A stretch of 64,000 bases of DNA from an uncultured Verrucomicrobiae bacterium. GTDB lineage: Bacteria; Verrucomicrobiota; Verrucomicrobiia; Limisphaerales; Palsa-1400. The notes under the pieces are model-generated. The model had not been told where the DNA came from. It did not search any database and saw only the letters and a list, made by a program, of their open reading frames with translations. Location of the stretch: positions 480,001 through 544,000 of the forward strand of contig CAVXRD010000002.1 in the NCBI GenBank assembly GCA_963764165.1, given 5' to 3'. Numbering within the stretch: the first letter of the stretch is position 1; each line of letters begins with the position of its first letter. A program made the translations under genes and the position numbers. Of this stretch, positions 1,434 to 30,489 are shown piece after piece.

Positions 1434-1434
1434 G

Positions 1435-1583: not shown

Positions 1584-2447
1584 TTAAAGCTGTTTGCGGA
1601 TGGATTCTAATTCCCGTCGGCGTTTCGCCGTAGTTTTGGGAAAGGCCATCTTAAGATCTTTGAGGGCATCAACGACAATTTGGGAAACGATAAGACGGGC
1701 GTTCTCCTTATCGTCAGCGGGAACGACGTGCCAAGGCGTGTGATGGGCGCTGGTCGCGGTCAGGCAAGCCTCATACGCCTTGACGTACTGTGGCCAGAAT
1801 TTCCTCTCGCGGATGTCAGCGAGGCTGAATTTCCAGTTCTTGTCCGGCTCATCAATGCGCTCCAGGAATCGCCTTCGTTGTTCGCCCTTCGACAAGTGGA
1901 GGAAAAACTTGATGATGCGGGTGCCGTTACGGTGGAGATGTTGCTCCAAATCCACGATGGACTGATACCGGCCCTCCCAAATTGACTTTTTCTCGATCAA
2001 CTCGTCCGGCATCCCCTGGCTGCGGAGAATTTCCGGATGCACGCGAACGACAAGCACATCCTCGTAATAGGAACGATTGAAAATGCCGATCCGTCCGCGT
2101 TCCGGCAAATGGCGGTTCGTGCGCCAAAGAAAATCATGTTCGAGTTCCTCGGCGGTGGGCTGTTTAAAACTGAAAACCTCGCAACCTTGCGGATTGACCC
2201 CGGACATGACGTGGCAGATGGCACCGTCCTTGCCGGCTGCATCCATTCCCTGAAAAATCAGCAACAAGGCATAATGGTTGGAAGCGTAGTGTAGTTGTTG
2301 CAGCGAACTCAATTGCTCAACATGCACTCCCAGAAGTCTTCGATACGCTTTTTTGGATTTGCAGAAGGGCTGCACTGCCGTCGGCCACTCCCGGAGTTTG
2401 ACCTTATCACCGGGCCTCACCCGGAAATCCTTCGAATTGATCTTCAT
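1584..2447 (-). CDS. ppk2: Polyphosphate kinase 2 family protein (class III-like)
   Basis: [11 protein letters not shown]alker [17 protein letters not shown]; start placed at MKINSKDF. Confidence 0.92.
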
Positions 2448-2475
2448 CGTCACTAATTTGTTCTGCTTGCTCTTC

Positions 2476-3378
2476 CTACAATCCGAAGCTCTTTCCTTTG
2501 GACAGCGCCTCGAACCCGGCGATGACGTCGAAAAGTTCCTCGTCAATGCCGGCTTGACGTATTCGGTGGTAGGTCCCATGAAGCGTCTCCAGCAAATCAT
2601 CAATGTTTTTATCGGCGCGTTCCATCGCGGACAGACGGCTCGCGTTCTCGCTGGCAAGGGATTCGGCACAGGCGCGGAAAAGCGAGATGAAGAGATATTC
2701 GCGAATGAGCGCTCGCAAGGTGACGATGCCGCTGCACATCACCTCGGGCAGCATATTTGTCGGCCAAGCAAGTTTGGCCAAGCCATTTTGCCATTGCGCG
2801 TCCAGCGGCAGCAACCGCTGGCTGACCGGTTCGTAGAGCGCCCCAGATTTTGGTCGGTTGTGGAAGACATAAAGTCGCGCATACTCGCCTTTGGCCCGAC
2901 GCGCTTCACTCTCGATTTGAATCTGTCCGACGAGTGGGGTGATGGCCTGCACGGAATTGGGCACGGCAAAGATTCCCGCCAGCGGGACGCCCGCGTCCGC
3001 TAAACGTGCGTGAACGCGCTCTCCTACAGCCCAGACTTCGGGTTTGCCGGGTAATGCAGCGAGGGTCTTGACCGCATAGTCGGCCACTACGTCATTAAAT
3101 TGACCCACTAATCCCTGATCAGAGCCGAACACGACCGCGCCAATGGCGCCGGCGTCCGCTTGTCCTTTTCGTGTTTCAATCGGAGCCGCTTCCCTGCTTT
3201 CCCGAAAACACGCGCCCAGTCCCAATTCCACAGTGCGATAATAGTCGCCTAATGCGCGCACTGATTTATCGTATTGTCCGATGCTTGAAGCAGCCAAAGC
3301 TTTCATCGTGCGAACCACGGATTGAAGATCGCCGGCACTGCTAATTTTTCGGGACAGGCTCGCTGTATTTTCGCTCAT
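2476..3378 (-). CDS. atpG: N-type F0F1 ATPase gamma subunit
   Basis: [40 protein letters not shown]. Confidence 0.95.
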
Positions 3379-5135
3379 GGCTTCTCCTTGGGGCGGGTCT
3401 CCGCGCGTTTAACTTCCGGCGACGGTTCCGGCTTGGATTCGATTCCAGGTTTAGTCTCTGCCTTAACTTCAGGACCAGGTTTGGGTTTAACCTCCTCCTT
3501 GGTTTTGGCATCGGCTTTGTCTTTAATATCGCCTTTCGTTTCGGCCTTCGACTCGACCTTAACATCAGCTTTGGTTTCATGCTTAACTTCAGGCTTGGGA
3601 TCCGGCTTGGGTTGAAAAGGTGCGAGCGCTTGACGGGCGATTTCAATTATCGCCTTTTTATCCTCCTCATTCAATTTTGCGGCGGTTTCAAATCGCGCAC
3701 TGATCTCCCCTGGAATTTTGGACGCAGATTCCCGCACGGCGTGCCCCGCCTCCGCCATCTGCTCAAGCGGCACTGGATCGAACAGGTTCGCGGTCAATGC
3801 CAGCAAGACGGTGATCTGTGCGGGCACCGCCACCGGGGCGGATTCGGGCTGCTTGAGACAGGCGCGGATTCGCCGTCCATGCTCGATGATCTTGCGCGTG
3901 TCATCGTCAAGACGCGCGCCAAACCGCGCGAAAGTTTCGAGTTCTTCGAATTGTGCGTAAGCGAGCTTGAGGTCGCCCGCGACCGCGCGATAAGCGGCCC
4001 ATTGCGCCTCGCCACCGACGCGCGAAACAGATTTGCCCACATCCACCGCCGGCAGCACGCCCAATTCAAACAGGGACGGTGAAAGATAAATTTGTCCGTC
4101 GGTAATGGAAATAAGGTTCGTCGGAATGTAAGCGGAAATGTCCTGTGCTTCGGTTTCGATGATCGGTAGCGCGGTGAGCGAACCACCCCTGCGTTCTTTG
4201 CTCAAGTGGGTCGCCCGTTCCAGCATCCGGGAATGAATATAGAAAATGTCGCCGGGGAACGCTTCGCGCCCGGGTGGACGGCGCAACAGGAGGGACAACT
4301 CGCGATAGGCTTCAGCGTGCTGCGTCAGATTGTCGTAAACAATCAGCACGTCACGGCCCTTTTCCATGAAATATTCCGCGATGCTGGTGGCAGCGTAGGG
4401 CGTAACATAGGTGAGGCCGGGCGCGTCGTTGCCCTCGGCGACTACGACCACGGTATATTCCATCGCCCCCTTTTCGCGCAGGTTCGCTATGACCTTGGCG
4501 ACGGCGGAAGCCCGCTGGCCGATGGCACAATAAACGCAGATCACATTTTTTCCGCGCTGGTTCAAAATGCTGTCCAGGGCAATGGCCGTTTTGCCCGTTT
4601 GACGATCGCCCAGAATCAACTCGCGCTGGCCTCGCCCGATGGGGATGAGCGCGTCAATGACCATAAGGCCGGTCTGGAGAGGCACCGTGACCGGCGCGCG
4701 GTCCATGATAGCCGCCGCCGGACGTTCGATGGGCAGACGCTGGCTGGAAGCCACCGGCCCTTTGCCATCGAGTGGCCGGCCGAGCGGGTCAATGACACGC
4801 CCCAGCAATTCATCGCCAACGGCCACGTCCATCACGCGCCCGGTGCGTTCGACCTCATCGCCTGCGTGCAGATCTTGATACGCGCCGAGCAACACGACGC
4901 CTATTTCATCCTCGTCCAGGTTGAACGCGATGCCGAAAACATCGCCGGGGAATTTTACCAACTCCTCAAAACCCACGCCCGGAAGGCCCGAGACCTTGGC
5001 GATGCCGGTGGCGACACTGATGACCGTGCCCACCTCCTTCGTCGTCATTTGCGGGGTGAAGGCTTCGCGCGCCTGGCTGATTCCAGCAAAGGTGCGGTCG
5101 AAGACGCTCAGCAAGCTTTCAGGAGCGGTGTTCAT
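3375..5135 (-). CDS. atpA: N-type F0F1 ATPase alpha subunit with Pro/Lys/Glu-rich C-terminal tail
   Basis: [34 protein letters not shown]. Confidence 0.97.
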
Positions 5136-6139
5136 GAGGCCTTCAATGCGGGTTCGAGTTCTTCAACCTTCGCCTCGGCCCTGGCTTTAGGTTTAAGGTC
5201 CTTCTCTGTTGCAGGCCTGGGTTTAGCGTCGATTTTGGCGATAATGTCAGTCTTAGCCTCTGGCTCGGCTTTGGCAGCAGTATTTGGCTCAACTTTGATG
5301 TCGGGATTTGGTTCCGGGATTGTTGGAGGTTTCGGCGTGGCCTTATTTTCGGGTTTCGCCTCGACTTTGGCTTCAGGCTTTTCCTTCTCTTTCAGCAAAT
5401 CGTCGACACCCTTTTCTAGTGACGTCAAATAATCGGTGATGGTCCATCCGACTTTCTGGCCGTTCGCGCTGAGTTCGATGCCGCTGATCAAATCCGGCGC
5501 GGTCTCGAACCGGATGTGAATTTCAGCGGAAAAGGTTTCGTTGAGCGCATTTTGGATCGCCGCTTGTTGCGCCGCCGGCAGATCAAAAGTGCTGCGAATC
5601 ACGGCGGGTTCAGAATTTTTCTTAAGGGCGTCGCAAAGCAAAGATTTCGCCTTCTGGTCCAGTTCTCGCAAGCGTCTATCAAACACCTCGCCCATCCGTT
5701 CTTCCAGACTTGTCGTGGCCAGATCCGTCAGTGCCTTGCGCGTGATGGCGAATACTTCCTTCTGCGTAAAGCGACTGATGGCTTGATTTAAGTTCTGGGC
5801 GTCATGGTTCAGCGACTCCTGTCGCTTGGCGCTCAGAGCATCGGCCGCTTTCCGCGCGTCGTCGAGGAGCCGCTCACGTTCGGCTTTCGCCTCGTCCGTC
5901 GCTTTGGTCAGAAGTGCGGCGCGTTGCTGGTCAAACTCCTCGTTTTTCTTCTGAAACTTTTCGTGTTCCTTTTGGGCTTCCGCTCTTTTCGCATCAGCGT
6001 CTGCGAGCTCTTTGGCGATCAGTTTCTCCCGCGCGTCAATGGCCTTGAGGATGGGTATATAGAGAAAGCGCTTCATCAACCACACGAGGATGAGGAAGTT
6101 TAGCGCTTGCGCCGCCACGGTGAACCAGTCGATTAACAT
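5132..6139 (-). CDS. atpF: N-type ATPase b subunit (extended, delta-like C-terminal part) with low-complexity tail
   Basis: [27 protein letters not shown], coiled coil, LISGIEL..NGQKVGW. Confidence 0.93.
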
Positions 6140-6143
6140 AGGC

Positions 6144-6434
6144 CTACTTTCCTGCCGCAGTTGCCACTCCGGCTATGACGTGGTTCCAGAACGGGTTGGC
6201 GAAGATCAGAATCATCGAGACCACGAAACAATAAATGGCCGTGGATTCGATCATGGCCAGACCGACAAACAGCGTCCGCGTGATGGTGGCGGAGGCGTCG
6301 GGTTGCTGCGCCAGCGCGGTAAGCGCCGTCGCGACCGAGCGCCCTTCTCCAAGTGCCGGGCACATGCAGCCAATGCCGGTGGTCAGGCCTGCGGTGGCGA
6401 TTGAGGCCACTGCGATGATTGTCATATTATCCAT
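6144..6434 (-). CDS. atpE: N-type ATPase c subunit
   Basis: Two TM helices, PALGEG, QQP loop, ESTAIY. Confidence 0.97.
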   Translation of the reverse strand: MDNMTIIAVASIATAGLTTGIGCMCPALGEGRSVATALTALAQQPDASATITRTLFVGLAMIESTAIYCFVVSMILIFANPFWNHVIAGVATAAGK

Positions 6435-6465
6435 AATTTTGTCCTTGGGTTGCTTTGTGAGTGTT

Positions 6466-7161
6466 TCAAGTTTTAGGCGCCACCGCAGGTTTCGGTTTGC
6501 CAGAGCGCGTGGCCGCAGCGATGTAAACCGCTGCCAAGATGCTGAAAATGTAGGCTTGCACCATGCCGGTCAACAGACCGAGCGCGGTCATTACGATTGG
6601 AAAAAGGAAAGGCGTTATAGTCAGCAGAATCGCAATGATCATCGCCCCGCTCATCATATTGCCGAATAGGCGGACGGCCAGCGCCAGCGTGCGCGACAGT
6701 TCACTGATGATGTTAAACGGCAGCAGGATGAACGTCGGCTTGGTGTAGGAGCCGAGATAACCCCGCAGTCCCTGTTCCTCGATGCCGAACAACGGCACGG
6801 CCACAAAAACGCACAACGCGAGCGCCGCCGTGGTTGAGAGCGAACCGGTCGGCGGCTCAAAACCGGGAATGATCGTGCAGAGCGCGGCCAGCGCGACGAA
6901 CAGAAAGAGCGTACCCAGAAAGCCGATATATTTTTCAGGGTGCTTCAGGCCGACATCTTCGATTTGTTTCTCGATGCCAGTGACGACAATTTCCAGAAGG
7001 TTCTGCCAGCGTGAACGCTTCAAGTCGGTCGAAAGTTTGCGCGTGATGAGTTTTGAACCAACGGCCAGCACAATCATTAGTCCCCAAGTGAACACAATCG
7101 TGCCGTTAAGCTTGAAAAAGCCGTGGTGCCAGAAGATCAACTGGTCGGGGCTAAGGCGCAT
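6466..7161 (-). CDS. atpB: N-type ATPase a subunit
   Basis: PPTGSLSTT, ELSRTLALAVRLFGNM, GMVQAYIF. Confidence 0.96.
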   Translation of the reverse strand: MRLSPDQLIFWHHGFFKLNGTIVFTWGLMIVLAVGSKLITRKLSTDLKRSRWQNLLEIVVTGIEKQIEDVGLKHPEKYIGFLGTLFLFVALAALCTIIPGFEPPTGSLSTTAALALCVFVAVPLFGIEEQGLRGYLGSYTKPTFILLPFNIISELSRTLALAVRLFGNMMSGAMIIAILLTITPFLFPIVMTALGLLTGMVQAYIFSILAAVYIAAATRSGKPKPAVAPKT

Positions 7162-7459
7162 CCGGGGCCTCCTTCACCGTAAGGCAGGGATGTTCGACTG
7201 GCGTGCGCGTAAGCCGTATCACGCAGAACCGCGCGATGATAAATCCCAGAAGACACGACACCAGCCGCTGCCAATTTCCGCGCCCGACAAAATAAAATCC
7301 AAGCAGAACAATGCCCATCCGCAGCAGCATGCTTCCGATAAACCACAGCGCCGGATTTTTGGAAGAAACACCCTTGCGCACGGTCCACCAAAGACCGCCG
7401 AAGAAAACTGCGCCGAGCAAAAGTCCAGCCGCCAACGCCAAGATTAGTAATTCATTCAT
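7151..7459 (-). CDS. atpR: N-ATPase AtpR membrane subunit
   Basis: GAVFFGGLWWTV..SMLLR, located between atpQ and atpB. Confidence 0.85.
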   Translation of the reverse strand: MNELLILALAAGLLLGAVFFGGLWWTVRKGVSSKNPALWFIGSMLLRMGIVLLGFYFVGRGNWQRLVSCLLGFIIARFCVIRLTRTPVEHPCLTVKEAPDAP

Positions 7460-7777
7460 CGTCGTCCTCCGTTTCGTCCTGCATTGCTTTTTCTTCCTTG
7501 GCGACCCAATACCACGCATTCAAACAGCCGACCGCCAACCCAACCACCAAAAGCGCCAGTGTCCACGGATGTTTGCCCGGATGGTGTTTATCCAACCAGA
7601 TGCCGAGCGCCGCGCCGAGCAGCGTAGGCACGACCACTGACCAGCCGACCAACCCCATCATGCCCAGGCCGAACCAGAACGCCCTGCGTGGATTTGCGGG
7701 CTTTGATCTTTCGGGTTGCCTTCGCACCGATTTCTTCGGCGAAGGATGGTTCGTTCCGCAGAGTTTTTCTTGGCTCG

Positions 7778-7785
<8 letters not shown>
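7452..7785 (-). pseudogene. atpQ: N-ATPase AtpQ (AtpI/AtpZ-like), split by a one-base insertion
   Basis: MNNEPRK...KARKSTQGV in one frame and WFGLGMMGLVGWSVVVP...WLD in another; extra base near 7678. Confidence 0.85.
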
Positions 7786-10566
<2,781 letters not shown>

Positions 10567-10588
10567 GGGGTTATTCGTGTCGTCATGC

Positions 10589-11611
10589 TCATGACCTTTC
10601 CATCGCGGCAGTATATTCGCCACGCCGCGCGGCACGATTGCACTTCGCACGATGAAGCAATGCTTGCTGCGCCGCCAACACGTTGGCGTCCCCGCCCTTC
10701 CAAATCTCCAATGCCGGTTGCTGGATGGCGCGGGCAAAAGAAAATGCCAGCGCCCATGGCAGTTGAGTCTTGAAACGAAGATTCATTACGTTCAAACGGG
10801 CCGAAGCCAATTCCGCAGATTGGCCCCCGGACAAGAATGCAATCCCTGGAACCGCAGCGGGGACGGTTCGCCACAGACTCTTCATCGTGGTATCGGCGAT
10901 CTCGTCCACGGATTCTTGCGCGGGGCACGCCAATCCCGGAAGCACCATGTTGGGCTTCAGAATCATGCCTTCCAGTATCACGCGCTGGGAATCCAGTTGG
11001 TTGAAAACCATTCGCAGGACTTCCTCTGTCACTTTGCGACAGCGCTCCAGAGTATGTTCACCATCCATGAGCACTTCCGGCTCGACTATCGGAACCAATC
11101 CGGCTTCCTGACACAACGCGGCATAGCGAGCCAGCGCGTGCGCGTTGGCCTCGATGCAACTCCGGCTGGGAATTCCATCGCCAATAGCAATCACCGCCCG
11201 CCACTTCGCAAAACGCGCGCCTATTTGAGAATATTCTCTGAGGCGGTCGCGCAATCCGTCCAGGCCTTCGGTGATTTTTTCACCGGGATGAGCAGCCATC
11301 TCCTTGGCTCCAGTATCTACTTTGATGCCGGGAATGATGCCCGCGTCGGTGAGGACTTTAAGAAATGAGGTGCCGTCCTTTTTCTGCTGGCGGATTGTTT
11401 CGTCGTAAAGAATCGCGCCACTGATGCACTCGCCGAGACCGGGTGTGGTCACAATCAACTCCCGATAGGCCCGCCGGGTGTCCACCGTTTGCGGAATGTT
11501 GAGCTTTGCAAATCGTTTGTGACAGGTCGGATTGCTTTCATCCATCGCCAGCAATCCCTTGTCGTCGGCAACCAGCGCCTTCGCAGTATCAATCAGCTTT
11601 TGTGCATTCAT
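10589..11611 (-). CDS. Fructose-bisphosphate aldolase class I
   Basis: KGLLAMDES, GIKVDTG, FAKWRAV, PIVEPEV, FLSGGQ. Confidence 0.95.
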   Translation of the reverse strand: MNAQKLIDTAKALVADDKGLLAMDESNPTCHKRFAKLNIPQTVDTRRAYRELIVTTPGLGECISGAILYDETIRQQKKDGTSFLKVLTDAGIIPGIKVDTGAKEMAAHPGEKITEGLDGLRDRLREYSQIGARFAKWRAVIAIGDGIPSRSCIEANAHALARYAALCQEAGLVPIVEPEVLMDGEHTLERCRKVTEEVLRMVFNQLDSQRVILEGMILKPNMVLPGLACPAQESVDEIADTTMKSLWRTVPAAVPGIAFLSGGQSAELASARLNVMNLRFKTQLPWALAFSFARAIQQPALEIWKGGDANVLAAQQALLHRAKCNRAARRGEYTAAMERS

Positions 11612-20659: not shown

Positions 20660-21150
20660 GGCTTGTTTTCCAAATCCACCACTTTCGCCAAGCGGCGACG
20701 AAAACGCGCCGCGCCGGTAAATCGGGCCGCAAGAAATGTCTGCGCCAATTCCAAGGCTAATGCGTGACCAACCACAAGGCCGCCGAAGCAGATTAGGTTC
20801 AAATCGTCGTCTTCGACGCCTTGATGAGCCGAAAAATTTTCATGAATCAAACAAGCCCGCACTCCCGGCACTTTGTTCGCGCAAACGGATGCCCCAACAC
20901 CGCTGCCACAAATGCCCACACCGCGACCCACCGTCCCGGCGGCAACCGCCCGGGCCAGCGGCGTGATAAAATCCGGATAGTCATCGTGCTCTTTCGGCCT
21001 ACCGTCCCCGAAGTCAATTACTTCATGTCCGGATTCGCGCAATTTCCCGGCCAGATACTGCTTTAATTCATAACCGCCGTGGTCTGCGGCCATCCCGACG
21101 CGAAGGCGCGTTCCCTCCGGTTCTTTCGTCGGCGCGCTTGGCGCGCTCAC
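20656..21150 (-). CDS. rpiB: RpiB/LacA/LacB sugar-phosphate isomerase
   Basis: ADHGG, DDYPD, CGSGVG, ANKVPGVRA. Confidence 0.9.
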   Translation of the reverse strand: MSAPSAPTKEPEGTRLRVGMAADHGGYELKQYLAGKLRESGHEVIDFGDGRPKEHDDYPDFITPLARAVAAGTVGRGVGICGSGVGASVCANKVPGVRACLIHENFSAHQGVEDDDLNLICFGGLVVGHALALELAQTFLAARFTGAARFRRRLAKVVDLENKP

Positions 21151-22127
21151 TGCGGAAGCTCCGGCCCTACGCGGTTTGAGACTTCCTTGGCACGATTCGT
21201 GTCATCAATTTGCTTTTTGATTTCGCCTTCCTTGTGTCCATTGGATCGTTCCTGGCCAAGACCCATGGTCAATGCTGTCATTCCGGCTAATCCTCCGAGC
21301 TGCATGGATTCCACAGCGGTGCTGGGAACAATCACTATCGTTGAGTTTTCCTTCAACCCCTCGTATAGCATGTTCATGGCCCGCAAGTGAAAGGCGATTG
21401 GATTGTGCTCGTAGCTTTTGCCGGCTTCGGCGAACTTCTCCGCGATCTGGCGTTCGGCGTCACCCAGGATTACACGAGCTTGCCGCTCTCGTTCCGCCTG
21501 CGCCTGCATGGACATCGCGTCCTCCAGTCCTGCGGGAATCAAAACATCCTTCACTTCCACCGAAATGACATTGATGCCCCAAGGTTCAGTCCGCTCATCA
21601 ATGATCTTTTGCAAGACGCTGCTGATTTTGTCCCGTCCCTCCAGCATGTCTGAAAGCATGGTTTTGCCGATCACATCGCGCAGAGCCGTTTGAGACGCCC
21701 AACTGATGGCGCTTTGATAGTCGGCTACGTCCAAAGCCGCCTTCTTCGGGTCCACCACTTTCCAAAACAGCACGGCATCCACATCCACTGGCACGGTGTC
21801 TTTGGTCAGAGTTTTTTCCGCTTTGAAACCGGTCGTGATAACGCGGGTATCAATCCAATACGGAATTGCATCAAGGACAGGCAGAATGAAAAACAGCCCA
21901 GGCCCTCGCAGAGCGTGGAAGTGGCCCAAGCGCAATATCACCGCCCTGTCCCATTGATCCGCGACCTGAATTGCCGAAGCGACGACCAACGCCACAATAA
22001 AACCAACAACCCCAATCCCGGCGGCTTCCACGATGTTGCCGACTCTATATCTGGCGTAGGCCAACGCAGCCCCCACCCCCAGGATCACGACAAATGTCAA
22101 AATTGCGAACGATCTGTTTTGTTTCAT
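21147..22127 (-). CDS. SPFH/stomatin (slipin) family membrane protein
   Basis: N-terminal TMs, LTKDTVPVDVDAV, QAQAERERQAR. Confidence 0.9.
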   Translation of the reverse strand: MKQNRSFAILTFVVILGVGAALAYARYRVGNIVEAAGIGVVGFIVALVVASAIQVADQWDRAVILRLGHFHALRGPGLFFILPVLDAIPYWIDTRVITTGFKAEKTLTKDTVPVDVDAVLFWKVVDPKKAALDVADYQSAISWASQTALRDVIGKTMLSDMLEGRDKISSVLQKIIDERTEPWGINVISVEVKDVLIPAGLEDAMSMQAQAERERQARVILGDAERQIAEKFAEAGKSYEHNPIAFHLRAMNMLYEGLKENSTIVIVPSTAVESMQLGGLAGMTALTMGLGQERSNGHKEGEIKKQIDDTNRAKEVSNRVGPELPQ

Positions 22128-22525
22128 AAATCACCTTCAATCTTTTCTCTGGCGCCTTGACGCATTTGATCATGCTCCGCGCCTTCAACGCCTTCTTCCA
22201 CGAGCCTCTGGTTATCGCTGCGCCCTTCCTCATCTTCATCCTCACTGGGAGCCACCGTGACTTTGCTTCCAGTGGAGCCGGGGATTGGATCCCAGCGCTC
22301 AGATTCGGGCGCGGACTCCAGGATGGCTTCTTTGGGGTCGGCATCCGGCTTGCCTGTAAGTTCCCGTTTGGCTTGTTCCCAATCAGATTTCGACACCTCC
22401 TGCTTGGATCGTCCGTTGATAACAGACAATTCAACCGCCCGTTCGCGCACCATCTTGCGTGTCACGGTGCCGAGGCCGGCGGAATTTTCCGTCAACGTCC
22501 CTTCCTTCAATGGATTCGTTTTCAT
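22124..22525 (-). CDS. Hypothetical protein with a DUF2934-like segment and acidic C-terminus
   Basis: VRERAVEL..INGR....DWEQAKREL; stop overlaps slipin start. Confidence 0.65.
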   Translation of the reverse strand: MKTNPLKEGTLTENSAGLGTVTRKMVRERAVELSVINGRSKQEVSKSDWEQAKRELTGKPDADPKEAILESAPESERWDPIPGSTGSKVTVAPSEDEDEEGRSDNQRLVEEGVEGAEHDQMRQGAREKIEGDL

Positions 22526-22536
22526 GAAGCTAAGAA

Positions 22537-22755
22537 TTATCGCCCGTGCGGAAATGTTTGCGCATTGTGCGACGTTTTCATCTGGCGCGCGCCGCGATCC
22601 TCGCGCGTGTCGCGGGATTTGGAAAAGGTGTTATCCCGCTTCTGCTGCTTTGGCTCCAACGTCGCTAGACTGGTTTTCGGTCGGAGCCTGTGAAGCGTTT
22701 TTGGGAAAACAGATGTTTGAAGGGTTGATGCCACTTCGAGTGATGCCTTTGTCAT
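22537..22755 (-). CDS. Small basic hypothetical protein
   Basis: ATG ORF filling the gap in a co-oriented run; no motif recognised. Confidence 0.35.
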   Translation of the reverse strand: MTKASLEVASTLQTSVFPKTLHRLRPKTSLATLEPKQQKRDNTFSKSRDTREDRGARQMKTSHNAQTFPHGR

Positions 22756-22774
22756 AAATTTGTTTTTGCCTTAT

Positions 22775-23032
22775 TTACGTTTTGTTGTGGAATCCATGGA
22801 CACGAGTGAGGTTGCGTTCCGCGAGCAAGTCCGCCTCGGCTTTTAGCCAGTGCTGTACGTCGCGGCCCGGCAAAGAACCCTCGTTCACATAACTGAAGTA
22901 AGCCTTTCTGGCTACTTCGTCCGCGGATGGCACAAAATCATTTCGACCTTGCGTAAGCTCGGCTGCGGCGGTCGAACGCGTGGCCTGGGTCGTTGATTGG
23001 TCTTTCTCCCGAGAGGAATTAGTGTGTTTCAT
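22775..23032 (-). CDS. DUF2934-like protein
   Basis: EVARKAY...G...GRDVQHWLKAE. Confidence 0.75.
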   Translation of the reverse strand: MKHTNSSREKDQSTTQATRSTAAAELTQGRNDFVPSADEVARKAYFSYVNEGSLPGRDVQHWLKAEADLLAERNLTRVHGFHNKT

Positions 23033-23056
23033 AAATAGAAAATCGTCTGGACGAGC

Positions 23057-23770
23057 TCAATCTGGAGCGCCAACCAAGACCATCGAGTGCGCGGGACTCT
23101 TTTCAACACCGTTGGTGGTCAGATTTACAAATACCGTGGATTCATCGTAACTGATCCGTTCGACCTTGCCGGTCGGTATCTGCACCTCTTTGCCTGAGAA
23201 GCGGTGTCCGGTTTTGATGATTACCTGGGTAATCGCCCAGCTTTCGTCGTCCATCATAAAGTCGCAGACATGGCCCATCAGTCCGTCGCTTGCCTTGATA
23301 TGGTAACCATTGACAGCTTTCGTGCTGCGCAGATGCGCTGCGGCCTGGTTATGCAGCGGGGCTTCGGCGGAAATTGATTTTGCTGGCGCAGAGGTCGGCG
23401 GCAATTCCATCATTGGCACGCTGCTCATGCCCCATAACGCATCTCCCTGCCAGTAGTAGGGCCAGCCGTAGTATCGGTGATACTCTTCTTCGTATTCACG
23501 GGACACGGGTTTGTGCGTGTCAATCGAAGGGCTGTGCTCGATTTGTTTTCGGGTCAACTTTACCCGCAGAACCTTCTCTGCTTGATGAAGACGCCCGAAC
23601 GCATGGGGTGAAATGAGCACCGCCCGGCCCGCCAACCATGAACCGGTTTCCACGACCACATAACGAATGGCCCACTTCTGGTCATCGAAATAAAAATCCT
23701 TCACATGGCCGATCTCACCGTCTGAGGCGCCGAGCGCATTTCCTTCCAATTGTTTGATGCTTCGTAACAT
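23057..23770 (-). CDS. PRC-barrel domain protein (two barrels)
   Basis: ASDGEIGHVKDFYFDD..WAIRY repeated as ASDGLMGHVCDFMMDD..WAI. Confidence 0.88.
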   Translation of the reverse strand: MLRSIKQLEGNALGASDGEIGHVKDFYFDDQKWAIRYVVVETGSWLAGRAVLISPHAFGRLHQAEKVLRVKLTRKQIEHSPSIDTHKPVSREYEEEYHRYYGWPYYWQGDALWGMSSVPMMELPPTSAPAKSISAEAPLHNQAAAHLRSTKAVNGYHIKASDGLMGHVCDFMMDDESWAITQVIIKTGHRFSGKEVQIPTGKVERISYDESTVFVNLTTNGVEKSPAHSMVLVGAPD

Positions 23771-24204
23771 AATTTCTAAAGTTCGCTTGGCGGCGTTCAA
23801 CTACCCAGCCGGTTGCGCCATCCTTGGCTGTGTCACCTAATCGTCGGCGTCAGCCAGTTTCGTGACATTGAGGTGACGGATGTTTTAATCATCGACCACT
23901 AAGATGCGGCAGGAGGGATCGCCATCGCGTAATGATGGCCGGTTGTCCGGCTCGCGACACGACATAGTCTGTCCTCGATCCAATATACGTGGAAAGGCTT
24001 TGCCGACGCCATACGGTGTTCTTCGTATAACGTATCCCTAGAGTCGCGGTGCGTTTCTAGGATCAGAGGTATGGTGCCCAAAGCTTCTTGATTGCGTGTC
24101 AAGCCGGATTTGATGACGTGTCTGGCATGGAGTGGGGGCCAAATTTTGCCGACAGCGGCGATTCCTCGCTCGTGAGCCCGGCAGGCAACCAAGCGATGAA
24201 AGTT

Positions 24205-24402
24205 TTATGCTTCGTTGCAAAGGCCGCGCGAACCCCACGAATTGTGTTCGCCCAATAACCGTGCCTCGGCTGCCGACCAGCCCTCGACATCGTGCCCCGG
24301 CTCCGAGTTGCGGTTTACGTAATTAAAATAGGCCAGTTTGGCTAATGTCATTCCATGCCGGCGAGAAATCACTATTACTTCTATTGAGGTTCGAAATCGC
24401 AA
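24205..24402 (-). pseudogene. Degenerate DUF2934-like paralog
   Basis: AKLAYFNYVN...PGHDVEGWSAAEARLL aligns by eye with 22775-23032; no clear start. Confidence 0.5.
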
Positions 24403-24500
24403 CGGGACGTGATTCGCCGCCTGGCATTTCGTTTCGATCCCAGGCGATGCTGCAATCTTTCATAAACGGAAATATTTGACAGGGCAACGCGCTCCAAGGA

Positions 24501-24806
24501 TCAAGTCACGGTCAAAACAGAGTTTCTTCCTCCAAATGCGTTGGGCACAGTTTCTCTAGCTGTCGGATCGGGCATCCATTGGCCGTCCACCACCAGGCAA
24601 TATTCATACTTCCCCGGAGCCAAAACGGTTTCCTTATACCAATGGCCTGCGGTTGATGGATGCAGTGTTTTGTTCTCAGGCTGCCAATGGTTAAATGTTC
24701 CCGCGAGGCAAACGGTTTTGGCCGTCGGATGAGTGAATTCAAAGCGGACGGACACCAATTGGGAGTTGGCGGCAGGGGTGTTGCTGTGGTTTTTGTTGTG
24801 TTTCAT
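24501..24806 (-). CDS. Stand-alone glycogen-binding (AMPK-beta/CBM48-like) protein
   Basis: AGTFNHW, LAPGKYEY..VVDGQW..DP, NAFGGRNS. Confidence 0.88.
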   Translation of the reverse strand: MKHNKNHSNTPAANSQLVSVRFEFTHPTAKTVCLAGTFNHWQPENKTLHPSTAGHWYKETVLAPGKYEYCLVVDGQWMPDPTARETVPNAFGGRNSVLTVT

Positions 24807-24842
24807 AATTGTTGACGATTCCTCTTCATTGGAGTGTTTCGT

Positions 24843-25388
24843 TTATAGTGTTGTCACCAGTTCCGGATGGATTGCCTGATGGTGCTCCATCGTTTCCGGA
24901 TTGGTGCCTTCAAGCATTTCTTTGGCCCCGGCTATTTCCTCCTGGGAACCGTGAGCAAGCAGAAGAAATTTGTCGGTTTTGAGAGCCGTTTGGTACTGCA
25001 AGATACTGTCTTTAGGAATTCCAAGACCATAAAGGCCCGCCCCCAGCGCGCTCAATCCGCCGAACACGACAGCGCCCTCCAGTGCCCCGAGAAGCCAACC
25101 AACGACTGGCCCGGCCATCGCCATCGGCCCGATGCCCGGAATCAAAAAGAAACCGGCACCGAGAAACCAGCCCCATATCCCGCCCCAGAAAGCTCCTCTC
25201 TTTCCCCAAGCCTTCATTCGGTCGCCGGCATTGTAATAGCCGACCACATGTTCATCGGTGTGATACTCACGTCCGACAATCGACAATTTCTTCATGTCGA
25301 AACTGGACCGCTGCAATTCTTTGACAGCCGCCTCGGCAGCCGTGTGCGATGGATATATCGCCACAATGGACTCATTTTTGGCCATCAT
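24843..25388 (-). CDS. General stress / glycine-zipper membrane protein
   Basis: AEAAVKELQ..FDMKKLSIVG, IPGIGP..AGP, LGIPKD. Confidence 0.75.
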   Translation of the reverse strand: MMAKNESIVAIYPSHTAAEAAVKELQRSSFDMKKLSIVGREYHTDEHVVGYYNAGDRMKAWGKRGAFWGGIWGWFLGAGFFLIPGIGPMAMAGPVVGWLLGALEGAVVFGGLSALGAGLYGLGIPKDSILQYQTALKTDKFLLLAHGSQEEIAGAKEMLEGTNPETMEHHQAIHPELVTTL

Positions 25389-25534
25389 AATTTTTCTTTC
25401 TTTGCGCGCTTTTGGATTTGTCGCCATTGGAACCTTAATGCTTGGATCGGGGTTTTAACATACGGTGTTCTCCCCACGAAGGAGTGCCGACAGACGTCTC
25501 TGAACATACAATTCGGCGTAACCCGACTAAACTT

Positions 25535-25554
25535 CCCCACTACCCATTAACGCA
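25535..25554 (-). other. Candidate oriT nic site
   Basis: Minus strand TGCGTTAATGGGTAGTGGGG, about 30 bp upstream of the relaxase, resembles MOBF nic cores (TGCGT...GT). Confidence 0.35.
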
Positions 25555-25582
25555 GGCGACTTTGAACATCGTACTTTGGGTC

Positions 25583-28471
25583 ATGCTTTCGCCCAAAGCG
25601 CAATACAGCCTGGCTGACGCCAAACGGTACTTCAGGGAACACCTGTCGGCTGGTGAGTATTACGCGGAAGGCCAACAAGTCCGGGGCCAATGGTACGGCA
25701 AAGGGGCGGCAGAATTAGGACTGACGGGCGTCACGAATGTCGAACAGTTTGAGCGGCTCTGCGATAATCTTCATCCGCAAACGGGCCAGCGCCTGACGCT
25801 GCGCCAGAAAACTACCCGGACGGAATCGGATGTGGACGGCACGGAGCATGAGTACGCCAACCGCCGGGTGTTTTATGATTTCACCATATCGCCGCCAAAG
25901 TCGGTTTCCATCGCCGCCCTGGTCGGCAACGACCGGCGGATTGTCGAGGCCCACGAGCGGGCGGTGACGATGGCAATGGAGCAATTGCAAACCTTTGCCT
26001 CCACTCGCATCCGCAAGGATGGCCAATGTACAGACCGCACGACGGGCAACATAGTCGCCGCCACGTTTCGCCACGGCACATCGCGGGCGCTGGACCCGCA
26101 CTTGCACACCCACTGCATTGTCTTCAACGCCACTTATGACGCGGTGGAAGCTCGATGGAAGGCATTGCAGAACCATGACATGCTCGTGGCGCAAAAGTTC
26201 GTCGAGAACGTCTATTACCACGAACTGGCGCGGTCGCTACAGGAATTTGGTTATGAAGTCGGGAGTCGGAATGTCGGCGATTTTCAGATCAAAGGCATTT
26301 CCAAGGAGCTTCGTGATTTGTTCTCCAAACGTCACCGGCAGATTGACGAGAAGACCCGCGAGTTGCTGGCCCGCCAACCTGAAAAAGCCGATGGCAACAT
26401 CGCCGCCATTCGGGAGCATATCTCCCACAAGGAACGCGATAGGAAAGTCCCGGAAATTGGGTTGTCCCGATTGCAGGCCCACTGGGATGATCAAATGACT
26501 TTGGAACAATGGAAATCGTTGCGGAATCTCATTCATGTCCAACCGACGAGTCGGGAGGACGCGAAGGTTGTGGCGGGGCGAGCGGTCGCGTGGGCGGAAG
26601 AACACTTGTTTGACAGGCGTTCGGTGGTCCATGAACACGAGCTTTGGCGGCACGCGCTCGGCTATGCCAGAGGCCAAAACGTGGCTTTGAAGGATATTCA
26701 ATCCGTCACCGGCAAACGTGATTATATCCGCGACGAAAAACATCCGGGCAAAGTTACGACCCGCGAGCATTTGCTCCGGGAATGGGAGATTGTGGACATG
26801 GTTCACAGGGGTCTGCGCCGCCATCATTCTTTCCGCCCGGATTATCATTGCGCCAATCCTTCCCTGGATGCGGAGCAACGACTGGCGGTGGAAAGAATTT
26901 TGGTATGGTGCGGCTTTGTCGCCGTTTTCCGTGGCGGAGCGGGCACTGGCAAAAGTTTCACACTCCGGGAAGTCGAGAAAGCATTGAAAGAGACGGGCCG
27001 GGCCGTCCACGTAATCGCGCCGCAACGCCAACAGGTCATGGACTTGGAAAAAGACGGCTTTCAGAATGTCGAGACGGTCAGTGCCTTTTTGGCGAAAGGC
27101 AGTTTGGAGGCGCAATCGGTCATCATTGTGGATGAGGCCGGGCAGATCGGTGGCAAACAGATGCACACGCTGTTGGAATTCGCCCTGGCGAACGAGAGCC
27201 GCGTGATTCTCTCCGGCGACACCCGCCAGCACGGCGCGGTCGAGGCGGCGGACGCTCTGCGGGCTATTGAAAAGTATTCAGGTGTGCGTCCCATCGAATT
27301 GACCACCATTCGCCGTCAGAATCCAGAACTGGCTAAAACCATCGAGGAACGCGAATGGATCAAACAATACAGACAGGCCGTGGCCGAAGCGCAGGACGGC
27401 AAGTTCGCCGAATCCTTTAATCGTCTGGATAGACAAGGAGCCATCGTCCAATGCAGCTTGGCTGACCAGCATCAAAAGCTGGCGGAACATTACCTGGCGC
27501 TGGCGAAAAACCATCAATCCATAGTGGTCGTCTCCCAAAGCTGGAATGAGATTCATCAGGTCAATGAACAGATTCGTCTGGCTCTCAAAGGCGAAAAACT
27601 GGTGGGCGAGGCTGACAAAGTCCTGACGACATTTCAGCCGGTGGATATGACGGACGCGCAAAAGCGCGATAAACGGTCTTACGATGAAAACTCCGTGGTG
27701 GTCTTCAACCGCAACGTGCGCGGCTTCAAAGCGGGCGAGGCGGCGCGATTGCAGGCCATTACCGAAACGCATGTGGTCGTTGAAAACGAGGGGCATCGCG
27801 TCTCGATACCGTTCAAGCATCTCGACCGAATCACGGTTTGCCAGACCAGGGAATTGGCCTTGGCATCGGGCGACCGGCTGCTCTTGAAGGCCAATGGCCG
27901 CAGCGAAGATGACCGGAAGCTGGCCAACGGCGAACTGGTCACGATCAAGGAAATCCACGAGGATGGCCGCATCGCGCTCGCCGATGGCCGGACGCTTTCC
28001 CCACAATTCCGCCAGTTCGTGCGCGGCTACGCCGTCACGTCCTATGCCTCGCAAGGCAAATCGGTTGATCATGTGTTGTTCTCAGATTCAGCGGTGAAGG
28101 CGGCGACGAACCAACAGCAATGGTATGTGACCATTTCGCGCGGTCGTAAGGGCGTCCAGATTTTCACAGCCGACAAAATCCAGCTTCGCCAAAACGTCCT
28201 CCGCTTCGGGGGCCGCGAACTGGCCTTGGACATCGCCAAAGAATCCTCCGTTCATGCGCTGGCAAAGGCTTGGGGCCGCGATATTGGATACGTCTTGAAT
28301 GTCCAGCATTCGCAGCGTCAAACCGCGCAGCGCCGGGCTGAATTGCTTCAGCGGGCAGAAGTTCAGGAAAGATCCGTATCTGCCCAGCAATCGCAAACCG
28401 TTCGGACGGCGCGGAAAATTAACCCCGCGTACAAGCACAATCAAAATTATGGAGGAGGCATCGGAGTATGA
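25583..28471 (+). CDS. mobF: MobF (TrwC/TraI-like) relaxase-helicase
   Basis: MLSPK start, EYY catalytic Tyr, DFTISPPKSVS, DPHLHTH, GGAGTGKS, VDEAG, YASQGKSVD. Confidence 0.95.
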   Translation: MLSPKAQYSLADAKRYFREHLSAGEYYAEGQQVRGQWYGKGAAELGLTGVTNVEQFERLCDNLHPQTGQRLTLRQKTTRTESDVDGTEHEYANRRVFYDFTISPPKSVSIAALVGNDRRIVEAHERAVTMAMEQLQTFASTRIRKDGQCTDRTTGNIVAATFRHGTSRALDPHLHTHCIVFNATYDAVEARWKALQNHDMLVAQKFVENVYYHELARSLQEFGYEVGSRNVGDFQIKGISKELRDLFSKRHRQIDEKTRELLARQPEKADGNIAAIREHISHKERDRKVPEIGLSRLQAHWDDQMTLEQWKSLRNLIHVQPTSREDAKVVAGRAVAWAEEHLFDRRSVVHEHELWRHALGYARGQNVALKDIQSVTGKRDYIRDEKHPGKVTTREHLLREWEIVDMVHRGLRRHHSFRPDYHCANPSLDAEQRLAVERILVWCGFVAVFRGGAGTGKSFTLREVEKALKETGRAVHVIAPQRQQVMDLEKDGFQNVETVSAFLAKGSLEAQSVIIVDEAGQIGGKQMHTLLEFALANESRVILSGDTRQHGAVEAADALRAIEKYSGVRPIELTTIRRQNPELAKTIEEREWIKQYRQAVAEAQDGKFAESFNRLDRQGAIVQCSLADQHQKLAEHYLALAKNHQSIVVVSQSWNEIHQVNEQIRLALKGEKLVGEADKVLTTFQPVDMTDAQKRDKRSYDENSVVVFNRNVRGFKAGEAARLQAITETHVVVENEGHRVSIPFKHLDRITVCQTRELALASGDRLLLKANGRSEDDRKLANGELVTIKEIHEDGRIALADGRTLSPQFRQFVRGYAVTSYASQGKSVDHVLFSDSAVKAATNQQQWYVTISRGRKGVQIFTADKIQLRQNVLRFGGRELALDIAKESSVHALAKAWGRDIGYVLNVQHSQRQTAQRRAELLQRAEVQERSVSAQQSQTVRTARKINPAYKHNQNYGGGIGV

Positions 28472-28821
28472 GCCTGAATATGAGAGCATTCGATGATCGT
28501 CTATCGTGTTATGAACTGAGCCGTCAAGTGATGGGCTACCATGTGCCCTTGGACAACGTAAGGTTGGAACTGACTCCCAGCCGGTTTTACTTGCTGCCTT
28601 ATCACCATTTGGAAGTCGCCGAGTTCGAGTCGGCCCATGAAGGCGACATGATTTCCCTTTCATTTGTCAACCATAAGGTGCGAATCACCGGCCGCAATCT
28701 GCGCGACCTGGCCGTTGCTTTTCAGGAACGCGCCGTCGTGTCGGTCACACCCGTGCCGGAACGGTACGGCGCATTGGGGGAATGTGTGCAGGGCTTGGTT
28801 GACTCAATCCAGATTGAGTAA
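28468..28821 (+). CDS. Hypothetical protein coupled to the relaxase
   Basis: ATGA overlap with relaxase stop, GGAGG upstream. Confidence 0.65.
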   Translation: MSLNMRAFDDRLSCYELSRQVMGYHVPLDNVRLELTPSRFYLLPYHHLEVAEFESAHEGDMISLSFVNHKVRITGRNLRDLAVAFQERAVVSVTPVPERYGALGECVQGLVDSIQIE

Positions 28822-28898
28822 AGGATTTCGGTCGGCGGGTGTTCGTGGTGCTTGCAGGAAGCGCGAGCGGACCCGATTCCGCCCGCGCCATTTCTGCA

Positions 28899-29150
28899 TT
28901 ACCCGCCAAACGGGCCGCTGCCGTCGTTGGGCGGCTCGATTTCCCACCGAATGACGGGCGGAACTTCCGACAGCCCCGTAGGTGGTCGTATAACCAAGAT
29001 GAAGGTGTGGTTGCCTTTCGTCTTCTTCCGCTCCGCCCGTTGCCCCAAATGCCAGGCAATGAACGGGACGGCAACATACACGAAAAGGCCGGAAACAAAC
29101 GTCCCGTGTTCCCGCAATAGCCAGTCAATCAAACGAAATATCGGATTCAT
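28899..29150 (-). CDS. Small membrane hypothetical protein
   Basis: GGAGG RBS directly after integrase stop; one TM segment. Confidence 0.5.
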   Translation of the reverse strand: MNPIFRLIDWLLREHGTFVSGLFVYVAVPFIAWHLGQRAERKKTKGNHTFILVIRPPTGLSEVPPVIRWEIEPPNDGSGPFGG

Positions 29151-29159
29151 GCTGCCTCC

Positions 29160-30239
29160 TTATTCGTTGACAGCTTGCGCCGCGAGTTGTGTCAGGTTGC
29201 TTGCAGGCTGTGCCGCCGCATTTACGCGCGGCATCGGCACTATCTTCCGCTCGTAATCCTCCAGCGATGGCACGATAACCTGCGCTTTTTTGGAATAAGC
29301 CCTGGCGATGGCCTTGGAACTGTGCCCAAGCGCCTGCTGGGCGAACCGCTCTGGCATTCCCACTGTCTTCGCCCGCTCGGCCCATGCGTAGCGATAGCTG
29401 TGCAAGGAAATGCCGGTGATGCCAACGGTTTTGAGCCGCTTGATAAACATCTTTGCCCGGTGGTTCTCCTGAATCCGCGCCATGCGTGGAAACAATGGGC
29501 CTTTTTTCGGCAACGATTCCAATAGCGCGGCGACATCCGCGCCGAAGGTGATAATGACCGGGACGTTGGTCTTGCCCCGACGGTAGGAAATTGTGCGGTC
29601 TTTCCAATCCACGTCCTCGCCGGTCAATTCCGCCATATCAGTCTGCGAGCCGCCCAGGTGCCACAGGAGTTGGTAATACGCCCGGATTTCCGGGTTGTGC
29701 TCCCGGTCAATGATCGCCTGATGCTCGTCCGCTGTAATCGCCTTCCGGTCTTTATGCCTCACTGGCGGCCAGTGAAGTTTCGGCAGGACCGGCCAAGGAA
29801 GCCAGTGCATCCCAACTGCGAAATTGTGCAGGCGGCGCAAAAACATATTCGTTGAGACGGTTCCCGAATTGAGAACCTGCAAAAAAAGCTCGGACGCCGT
29901 TTCCATGAGTTTGCGGTGGCGGATGAGGTCGAAGGCTTTGTCCCGCATCGCCGCTATCCATCGGCGTTGGGTTGGGCCGGTTTTGAGCGGGGCCATTGCG
30001 TCCATGACATCCTGCCATGTCCGTTTGGCCATGACGGGGTCGCCGTGTTGCAAGTAAGCCTGGGCGATTTGCAGGTTGATGGCGGGCTGGCGCACGGCCT
30101 GATTTTTGGCCTCGACGATCTGCCGGGCGGCGTCCTCGTTCGTGGTGTTAAGGCTGGCGCGTTTGCCAGTGACTTTGTCAAAGCAATAATACATCCCACC
30201 CCGGATGCCACGATGAACTAAGCGGTAACGTGTATTCAT
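29160..30239 (-). CDS. Tyrosine recombinase/integrase
   Basis: RRGKT, HSYRY, ALGH, C-terminal Tyr (ARAY); next to a tRNA. Confidence 0.9.
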   Translation of the reverse strand: MNTRYRLVHRGIRGGMYYCFDKVTGKRASLNTTNEDAARQIVEAKNQAVRQPAINLQIAQAYLQHGDPVMAKRTWQDVMDAMAPLKTGPTQRRWIAAMRDKAFDLIRHRKLMETASELFLQVLNSGTVSTNMFLRRLHNFAVGMHWLPWPVLPKLHWPPVRHKDRKAITADEHQAIIDREHNPEIRAYYQLLWHLGGSQTDMAELTGEDVDWKDRTISYRRGKTNVPVIITFGADVAALLESLPKKGPLFPRMARIQENHRAKMFIKRLKTVGITGISLHSYRYAWAERAKTVGMPERFAQQALGHSSKAIARAYSKKAQVIVPSLEDYERKIVPMPRVNAAAQPASNLTQLAAQAVNE

Positions 30240-30345
30240 AATTTCCTCACGTAACCGCGATGATAAACTACCCGAAGCCCGGACCGTTAGCGGGTAGTCG
30301 GAGAGTTATCCTCCGTTACCCCTGTTTAAAGCGGGCACACAAGTT

Positions 30346-30367
30346 GGTGTCCGTTTCGGTGTCCGTT
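30346..30367. repeat. Direct repeat GGTGTCCGTT x2, candidate integrase arm sites
   Basis: Copies at 30346-30355 and 30358-30367 between integrase and tRNA. Confidence 0.55.
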
Positions 30368-30413
30368 GCCGACCATCTGCCACCTAAACCATTGTTGCAC
30401 TAGCAGTTAGGAA

Positions 30414-30489
30414 TGGAGCCAGTTGCCGGATTTGAACCGGCGACCCACGCTTTACGAAAGCGTTGCTCTACCAACTGAGCTAAACTGGC
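30414..30489 (-). tRNA. tRNA-Thr(CGT)
   Basis: Cloverleaf GCCAGTT...AACTGGC-TCCA, anticodon loop TTCGTAA, 76 nt. Confidence 0.97.

Follow-up and report, generated by a model that had tools for sequence, protein, structure and literature searches.

A probable integrative mobilizable element at a verrucomicrobial tRNA-Thr gene holds an N-ATPase and predicted ATP-supplying enzymes in an exchangeable slot

The stretch of DNA analysed here (the window, 64,000 nucleotides) covers positions 480,001 to 544,000 of contig C2 in the genome of an uncultured Verrucomicrobiae bacterium (G000; other G numbers denote comparison genomes and L numbers fetched loci), so that a window position is the C2 position minus 480,000. 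The genome is 7.0 Mb large, falls into 5 contigs and is 97% complete with 2.5% contamination. An N-ATPase operon among genes of carbon and polyphosphate metabolism is followed in the window by a relaxase gene, an integrase gene and a tRNA-Thr gene, and a first-pass annotation had described positions 1584 to 30489 as an integrative and mobilizable element (IME) inserted at the tRNA-Thr 3' end. The genes named there were recovered: a tyrosine integrase (29160-30239, minus strand) 175 bp beyond the tRNA 3' end, a MobF relaxase-helicase (25583-28471, plus strand; 235 bits against a MobF NCBIfam cut-off of 100) and, in place of "about 24 kb", 23,844 bp of cargo (1584-25427), all on the minus strand. 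The start at 1584 had to be given up, as the true left end lies about 8.9 or 11.5 kb past the left edge of the window (C2:471,069 or 468,537). By its own integrase and relaxase, and without a mating apparatus of its own, the locus is an IME, of which the right attachment site (attR) is inverted and the origin of transfer (oriT) is a candidate. Its main features, from the tRNA leftwards, are the following (window positions unless marked C2):

30414-30489, minus strand: tRNA-Thr(CGT), the integration target, its final ~21-24 nt being the attachment (att) core
30345-30413, minus strand: attL arm with two GGACACC-type repeats (integrase-1 type); this arm is also present behind the core in G003, G016 and L039
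30285-30307, minus strand: 23-nt box common to the regions upstream of int1, mobF, orfX, rep and int2
29160-30239, minus strand: tyrosine integrase Int1 of 359 aa with intact K/H/R/H/Y and with Ser198 where the first catalytic Arg would stand
28899-29150, minus strand: orf83, small conserved backbone gene, 80-90% in sister elements, no Pfam or NCBIfam match
28468-28821, plus strand: orf117, conserved backbone gene overlapping the mobF stop codon, with unnamed clusters as its only atlas matches
25583-28471, plus strand: MobF (TrwC-type) relaxase with SF1 helicase, 962 aa, with N-terminal tyrosines, HUH and Walker motifs
25497-25552, plus strand: right slot edge (~25497-25508) and shared box upstream of mobF
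21147-25427, minus strand: stress-type genes (YflT-like, CBM48/AMPK glycogen-binding, PRC-barrel, DUF2934, orf133, SPFH)
17178-21150, minus strand: RpiB, alpha-glucan phosphorylase (18089-20659), 66-aa DUF1737-like gene, HAD phosphatase
17032-17181, minus strand: acetate kinase remnant, 49 codons
14859-17042, minus strand: Cu-type P1B ATPase (CopA-like)
9814-14844, minus strand: Xfp phosphoketolase (12397-14844), double SpoIIAA-like gene, class-I FBP aldolase, HAD-IIB/PMM-like enzyme
2476-9827, minus strand: N-ATPase operon atpDCQRBEFAG (atpD 8157-9827, atpQ 7452-7785, atpE 6144-6434)
1584-2447, minus strand: PPK2, passing the ADP-polyphosphate phosphotransferase cut-off (NF042973, 503.6 against 450 bits)
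C2:477,764: left slot edge
C2:477,409-477,439, plus strand: candidate oriT, a 7-bp hairpin with an F-nic-like 9-mer
C2:475,301-477,192, minus strand: orfX (StbA/DUF5338 look-alike), TraL/ParA-like ATPase, orfY
C2:470,940-471,092, plus strand: inverted cognate attR

The right half of the element's backbone (att, int, orf83, orf117 and mobF; 25497-30434) was found at 90% DNA identity or more in six of 30 genomes of the same family. It is near full length in G016 (93%), G030 (92%) and G019 (90%), all of other genera and with a housekeeping larC gene 69-71% identical, and the left half (orfY, the TraL/ParA-like gene and orfX; C2:475,301-477,764) is 93% identical in the same three genomes. Int1 is 94-96% identical in G003, G016 and L039, and MobF 91-93% in L038-L040. 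The backbone identity of 90-93% across genera speaks indirectly for excision and transfer in trans. Similarity stops at the same two points, both slot edges being common to the sister elements within about 10 bp, and the slot between them measures 1.25 kb (L039), 7.7 kb (L038), about 26 kb (G019) and 27.7 kb (G000). The collection of homologous relaxase/integrase pairs with their cargo, as proposed in the first-pass annotation, yielded the same backbone with different slot contents in other genera. Among the genes in the slot of G019 (L040/L244) are those for Crp-type, COX1-like, molybdopterin oxidoreductase and DUF488 proteins, once more a load of the low-oxygen or stress type. A position of the G000 cargo outside the element was rejected since both backbone halves flank it, and the cargo lies almost certainly inside. 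Relaxase and cargo are not separated by an att copy, the core occurring once in the window (shuffled sequences with a match, 0 of 100). By tetranucleotide distance the cassette ranks 3rd of 75 windows of sequence, and the GC content of the slot is 55.4% against 56.9%. The backbone family is abundant in Verrucomicrobia; 79 MobF-family loci were obtained there from one scan, and the titles of the closest relatives of MobF are almost all Verrucomicrobia or Limisphaerales.

The ends of the element were defined by the 21-nt att core, of which five genomic copies were found at up to 3 mismatches, with ~0.1 chance match expected genome-wide. They lie in the tRNA-Thr(CGT) of the window, in tRNA-Thr(TGT), and at C2:471,069 (inverted), 468,560 and 453,271, the last three being what a search for a second tRNA-Thr 3' end, proposed by the first-pass annotation, brought to light. 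Two arm types accompany the cores, GGACACC repeats after the tRNA and before the inverted core, and TGTCAG arms before the truncated integrase Int2 and the core at 468,560; the N-terminal domain type of this integrase family appears to track the arm-repeat type. The cognate attR of G000 is in inverted orientation, with a direct-orientation core bearing arms of the other type 41.9 kb from attL. The sister element of G016 ends with rep, GGACACC arms and the core, so that attL and attR form a direct pair at a distance of 32.6 kb, and G019 has the junction of rep, attR and the next integrase in un-inverted order. Because the direct arrangement is seen in these two genomes, G000 is best read, by sequence comparison, as a tandem array in which a ~2.7-kb block (rep, attR and the 5' part of int2) has been inverted. 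By the rules of tyrosine recombinases, recombination of attL with the cognate attR by Int1 would lead to inversion of 39.4 kb, and the copy could be excised only through the hybrid site at a distance of 41.9 kb. With the cognate attR inverted, present-day excision is doubtful, and we tend to regard the G000 copy as one that no longer excises; it appears partly decayed, and its mobility is a putative property. The 23-nt box has 7 genome-wide matches at up to 3 mismatches, 5 of them inside the element (the pattern was built from two of them). The remaining features of the slot and the array are:

1-1433, plus strand: in-window part of an IS66 element inside the slot (whole C2:478,931-481,433, 8-bp target duplication)
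1434-1527, plus strand: 3' piece of a cydB fragment; the cydA/cydB fragments begin at C2:478,214 and are split by IS66
C2:472,319-475,132, minus strand: Abi-like gene and 594-aa gene
C2:471,272-472,117, plus strand: truncated Int2, 74.5% identical to Int1
C2:469,475-470,440, plus strand: HUH Rep-like gene
C2:468,537-469,310, minus strand: PIN toxin-antitoxin pair, TGTCAG arms and direct att core
C2:453,250-453,271: third, degenerate att core

Two other readings of this arrangement were considered. The inverted attR block, or the whole junction, could be a mis-assembly, the real element being a direct-repeat IME or the cassette lying elsewhere. Frameshifted mobF genes are found in other loci from similar assemblies, and a one-base insertion in atpQ could be a sequencing error; against this, independent assemblies have both slot edges at the same points, no repeat long enough for a mis-join was found at either end of the inversion, and contig number and contamination are as low as given above, which makes an artefact very improbable. 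Alternatively, the whole array from the tRNA to C2:468.5 or 453.3 kb might move, by hybrid-site excision through Int1, copying by Rep and a phage-satellite-like or otherwise non-conjugative spread. The 57 kb next to the tRNA contain three att cores, the Rep-like gene shares the backbone box, and composite excision of tandem elements has been described (PMC5704250; this and the other papers cited by number were available in part, and statements on them refer to those parts). The full-length MobF, the oriT-like site and the TraL/StbA-like genes point to conjugation instead, Rep shows partial conservation only (G016, G019) and Pfam scans gave no phage structural gene; movement of the array in this manner is very improbable. 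At C2:446,026-468,207 (L002-L003), two very long open reading frames (ORFs) of 2,370 and 4,924 codons were observed. The longer one fills the gap between the second and third att cores and is probably what is left of a decayed third element with adhesin-like cargo.

The tRNA-Thr(CGT) genes of G004, G012 and G006 were without the Int1 arm, and G001 has a different integrase at this site. A clean empty-site comparison was impossible, because the tRNA-Thr flanks are non-syntenic in the congeners. In G000 a gene that we take to be larB is joined to tRNA-Thr (window 30490-30727), while in three congeners a presumed aminopeptidase-like gene precedes tRNA-Thr and presumed CNNM-like genes precede larB; the G000 homologues of the aminopeptidase-like and CNNM-like genes sit together at C2:1.67-1.68 Mb. 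These differences suggest a large chromosomal rearrangement.

Ser198 of Int1 stands at a position that is occupied by serine or alanine in all 34 full-length homologues (S in 26, A in 8), and the conserved arginines R221, R261 and R268 are possible substitutes. By analogy, the missing arginine is not to be taken as decay, since it is family-wide and IntCTnDOT-type integrases, which likewise lack the first Arg of the RKHRH pentad, work with a relocated one (PMC8138268). These belong to conjugative transposons of Bacteroidota and are likened to Int1 by the missing Arg. Orf117, for which a single-sequence fold reached a pLDDT of 33.6, may be an excision factor.

The candidate oriT matches the hairpin-plus-nic layout of F printed in PMC3074121. 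The motif is a single copy in G000 and was found in 16 of 79 MobF loci compared to one of 80 control loci; in 15 of these 16 it lies upstream of mobF on the same strand, 0.8-8.1 kb off. The cargo slot is situated between this site and mobF. If nicked like F, the transferred strand would be the template for the cassette and the slot would enter the recipient first, a weak prediction by analogy, because stb/traKLM-type genes lead in the transfer of R388 and RP4; the likeness of orfX to StbA/DUF5338 clusters is a lead only.

The first-pass statement that a coupling protein and a type IV secretion system (T4SS) are missing from the window could be extended to the element, and VirB4, TrbL and TraG-D_C gave no match within C2:453-511 kb. 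A full integrative and conjugative element (ICE) was ruled out on these grounds; such genes are found at C2:50-94 kb and elsewhere. A plausible helper is the element at C2:~50-105 kb, which has VirB4-like, TrbJ-like, TrbL and VirD4-like genes and its own MobF, and the TraL-like gene of which aligns weakly with the ParA-like gene of the tRNA-Thr element (E 2e-08). It lies upstream of tRNA-Lys (L152-L153) with a divergent T4SS, MobF and a 3,651-codon ORF, is a putative complete ICE, and has an integrase of a type that seems to target tRNA 5' ends, as in G061 and G062. G000 holds two further MobF elements, at C1:1,070-1,103 kb (with defence-like genes) and at C1:223-236 kb (with signalling genes between mobF and a ParA-like module).

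The N-ATPase operon had been called whole. All nine genes, atpDCQRBEFAG, are indeed present, but near 7678 atpQ contains one base too many, which is a genuine frameshift or a fault of the assembly. Eight of the nine pass TIGR "alternate F1F0" or AtpR cut-offs and atpQ passes ATPase_gene1 (TIGR02230). AtpR scored 106 bits with PF12966 and 107 (cut-off 55.5) with TIGR03165. The long b subunit (TIGR03321, 327.8 against 224.7) has a weak delta-model match at 172-241, atpF being a b-delta fusion and atpH absent. The c subunit contains Glu30 and E63-S64-T65-A-I-Y68 (ESTxxY), a Na+-type arrangement, and judged from these residues the enzyme probably pumps Na+. The host has its own F-type ATPase (a, c, b, delta, alpha and gamma at C2:984-991 kb, beta on C5) with a c subunit that is without Na+ ligands. 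In an AtpA tree (45 rows, FastTree) the window copy stands beside metagenome loci, and no donor could be named. The beta (8157-8430), alpha (3375-3620) and b (5132-5400) subunits end in tails of 80-90 residues rich in Pro, Lys, Glu and Ala (64-71% PKEA), and a similar tail is found on the cassette P-type ATPase of G061. Apparent atpA fragments in G061 were low-complexity Pro/Lys/Glu tail matches and no ATPase remnant, and were discarded.

The cargo reads, in order, yflT-like, CBM48, PRC, DUF2934, orf133, SPFH, rpiB, glgP, HAD, ackA remnant, copA-like, xfp, SpoIIAA-like, fba, PMM-like, atpDCQRBEFAG and ppk2. From orf133 to ppk2 the intergenic gaps are 87 bp or less, and most junctions overlap. 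The remnant, which we take to be ackA from its best match to a C1 gene and an N-terminal motif, has an intact ackA-like counterpart adjoining a second xfp (C1:1,664,516-1,665,718). The IS66 element has 3 near-identical genomic copies.

Taken together, the locus is probably an integrative element of the tRNA-Thr 3' end with an exchangeable slot for the N-ATPase and enzymes predicted to supply ATP, likely mobilised in trans by a conjugative element of the same genome. In the proposed mechanism, Int1 would integrate and excise a circle at the tRNA-Thr core, MobF would nick the hairpin oriT and unwind the strand with its helicase, and coupling protein and mating pore would be borrowed from the element at C2:~50-105 kb. 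After arrival, GlgP would release glucose-1-phosphate from glycogen; the PMM-like enzyme, aldolase and RpiB would route sugar phosphates to phosphoketolase, the acetyl-phosphate would be converted to ATP by the intact acetate kinase of the host, and PPK2 would make ATP from polyphosphate. The N-ATPase would spend this ATP in pumping Na+ (possibly H+) out of the cell when respiration fails. That the cassette fuels the pump is slightly favoured over the opposite; the idea follows the view that N-ATPases pump and do not synthesise (PMC2881411) and the description of an ATP-sensing phosphoketolase (PMC10365998).

The distribution of the operon was patchy. AtpR was found in none of 4 genomes of the same genus and in one of 30 of the same family, above cut-off in 3 of 60 relatives and in 22 of 400 other genomes of the order, and a core-genome operon was therefore rejected; the syntenic core that would have spoken against the first-pass interpretation was not encountered. 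In metagenome N-ATPase loci with at least 5 kb upstream, a carbon gene of the cassette was present upstream of atpD in 25 of 34 cases, xfp in 19. The beta subunit also matched 16 plasmids in PLSDB (e.g. NZ_CP080242.1 and CP014769.1), 11 of them typed as non-mobilizable; an N-type operon was present in all four that were inspected, with xfp/fba/ackA as neighbours in one of them and glgP/pgm in another. A second MobF lineage (55% identical) has yflT, glgP, HAD, xfp and fba upstream of mobF in G061 and G062, with ppk2 in addition in G061, on elements bounded by tRNA 5'-end repeats (40.2 kb and 31.6 kb). Neither genome had AtpR over the cut-off (none of 5 tested genomes); a weak match in G061, on another contig among regular respiratory genes, was dropped. 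Eleven of the 22 other AtpR-positive genomes of the order have a TrwC, which is near the operon in G081 only. There an unrelated TrwC (28% identical), accompanied by TrwB and RepA, is located 9.5 kb from the N-ATPase cassette, and the carbon cassette lies on the opposite side. In G358 the cassette lies 6 kb from an integrase-flanked tRNA-Leu. No second att was found within 140 kb (G081) and 80 kb (G358). Between a tRNA-Leu integrase and the relaxase of G081 (1,261-1,290 kb; L149/L119) a Piwi-domain Argonaute, a methylase and two helicases form a defence island.

Several observations weigh against a mobile element that delivers a fuelled Na+ pump. Backbone and N-ATPase together are a single observation, with AtpR in none of the 6 backbone-bearing genomes. 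A TrwC is near the operon in just one of the 22 other AtpR-positive genomes (many contigs are short), and none of 80 metagenome N-ATPase loci has backbone genes within flanks of up to 10 kb, a weak test because mobF and atpD are 15.8 kb apart in G000. Besides the inversion of the cognate attR, a base-exact attB was not obtained, the tRNA-Thr flanks being rearranged in congeners relative to G000; ackA and cydAB are remnants, and the extra base in atpQ is a departure from 10 of 10 relatives with a printed segment (11 aligned). Scores of the helper genes are mostly below curated cut-offs, including those of the VirB4 and VirD4 models, and no FNR/CRP boxes above chance were found in the slot. With respect to the pumped ion, of 50 c subunits from related metagenome loci 33 have ESTAIY and 17 have ESIAIY, and the N-ring of B. 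pseudomallei, with two Glu and a different motif, pumps H+ (PMC5376962).

Some of these points would also fit a resident element into which the cassette was captured separately, by recombination or with the help of an insertion sequence, the composite never having travelled and being fixed after the attR inversion. The absence of a second genome with backbone and N-ATPase is in line with this, as are the inverted attR, the truncated Int2, IS66, the cydAB/ackA remnants and the atpQ frameshift. Xfp is 95% identical to a copy in G030, on a contig of which the 20 kb inspected showed no backbone gene, and the cassette has no relaxase nearby in G170, G354, G358, G149 and G129. On the other side, Int1, MobF, orfX/TraL/orfY and the oriT motif have stayed intact, with 88-98% identity to their counterparts in sister elements; G019 likewise accommodates about 26 kb in its slot, and carriage by such elements recurs, because the att-bounded MobF elements of G061 and G062 hold the same carbon cassette upstream of mobF. 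Separate capture is considered unlikely, and arrival of the cassette on the tRNA-Thr element fairly probable.

MOBF IMEs were absent from a 2017 review of IMEs, and 25 were listed later (PMC8627217). The Mesorhizobium element IMEMl R88B of that paper resembles the present one in its tRNA-targeting tyrosine integrase, MOBF relaxase, lack of a T4SS and variable cargo, in accessory genes divergent from the relaxase around oriT, and in a small gene directly behind the relaxase. The Mesorhizobium IMEs have Ti-like traACD, whereas the element in G000 has TraL/ParA-like and StbA-look-alike accessory genes, its cargo between oriT and relaxase and an integrase without the first catalytic Arg; no N-ATPase cargo is reported in the available text of that paper. 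The operons described by Dibrova, Galperin and Mulkidjanian in 2010 (PMC2881411) share the gene order, AtpR, AtpQ, the absence of delta, the long b subunit, the helix-1 Glu with ESTxxY, the presence as a second copy beside the F-type enzyme and the patchy, laterally moved distribution; the frameshifted atpQ is a difference. As carriers, the available text names only the plasmids pREB4 and pAQ7, with no mention of an integrative element or a carbon cassette. N-ATPase has also been described as a population-variable region (PMC8620254). Plasmid-borne N-ATPases are likewise found beside phosphoketolase, aldolase, acetate kinase and PRC-barrel genes, and on one MOBB plasmid beside glucan phosphorylase and phosphoglucomutase; they differ in occurring in other phyla, without tRNA integration and mostly (11 of 16) on non-mobilizable replicons. 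A functional analogue is the low-oxygen locus lxa of Burkholderia cenocepacia (PMC3721108), a strain-variable stress and fermentative cluster including acetate kinase that supports survival without oxygen. It is not a predicted genomic island, is rich in universal stress proteins and has an FNR-like motif, unlike the cassette, where FNR boxes are not enriched; phosphoketolase and glycogen do not figure in its available text, and ATP synthase appears there as the housekeeping operon alone. A literature search that took in few subscription papers and not the gene-neighbourhood supplement of PMC2881411 brought up no report of an N-ATPase on an integrative element, and within this scope neither the link of N-ATPase with phosphoketolase nor these verrucomicrobial elements were found described. 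MOBF IMEs and plasmid-borne N-ATPases are thus known, and their combination was not found in print in the literature so covered.

Elsewhere in the window, tRNA-Val (33742-33816) and tRNA-Leu (62459-62543) were found, the Rfam scan giving tRNAs only, and the GC content climbs to 60-64% at 36-44 kb. Promoter and terminator scans gave 9 and 29 hits, with 8.7 and 25.2 expected. Contigs from 6 sequencing runs were short pieces of relatives, and none among those listed spans a slot edge or an attP junction; contigs from an RNA library touched 30 of 30 bins and have no bearing on transcription. At C2:1,559,019-1,561,230 nine tRNA calls are packed together, among them a second tRNA-Thr(CGT) and a tRNA whose anticodon is of the stop type, and possibly form a mobile tRNA array.

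N-ATPase has been regarded as laterally transferred since 2010, with plasmids as the only named carriers and a role that is still presumed. The locus described here is a chromosomal carrier with a relaxase, delimited by att sites and with cargo boundaries that are exactly placed; the sister elements are its natural controls without the cargo. It also ties the pump to enzymes of substrate-level ATP formation, a link shared by the informative related loci counted above. This opens the route of spread and the physiological role to direct tests. Elements of this kind are likely one vehicle by which N-ATPase spreads. More tentatively, and with slightly more doubt than belief, verrucomicrobial MOBF elements in general may be shuttles that exchange cargo at a single slot flanked by oriT and relaxase, and three or more of their relaxase lineages would have gained the energy cassette independently, with or without N-ATPase. 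If true, this would name a chromosomal vehicle for the spread of N-ATPase, and the enzyme would be the pump in a mobile survival kit that is fed by fermentation.

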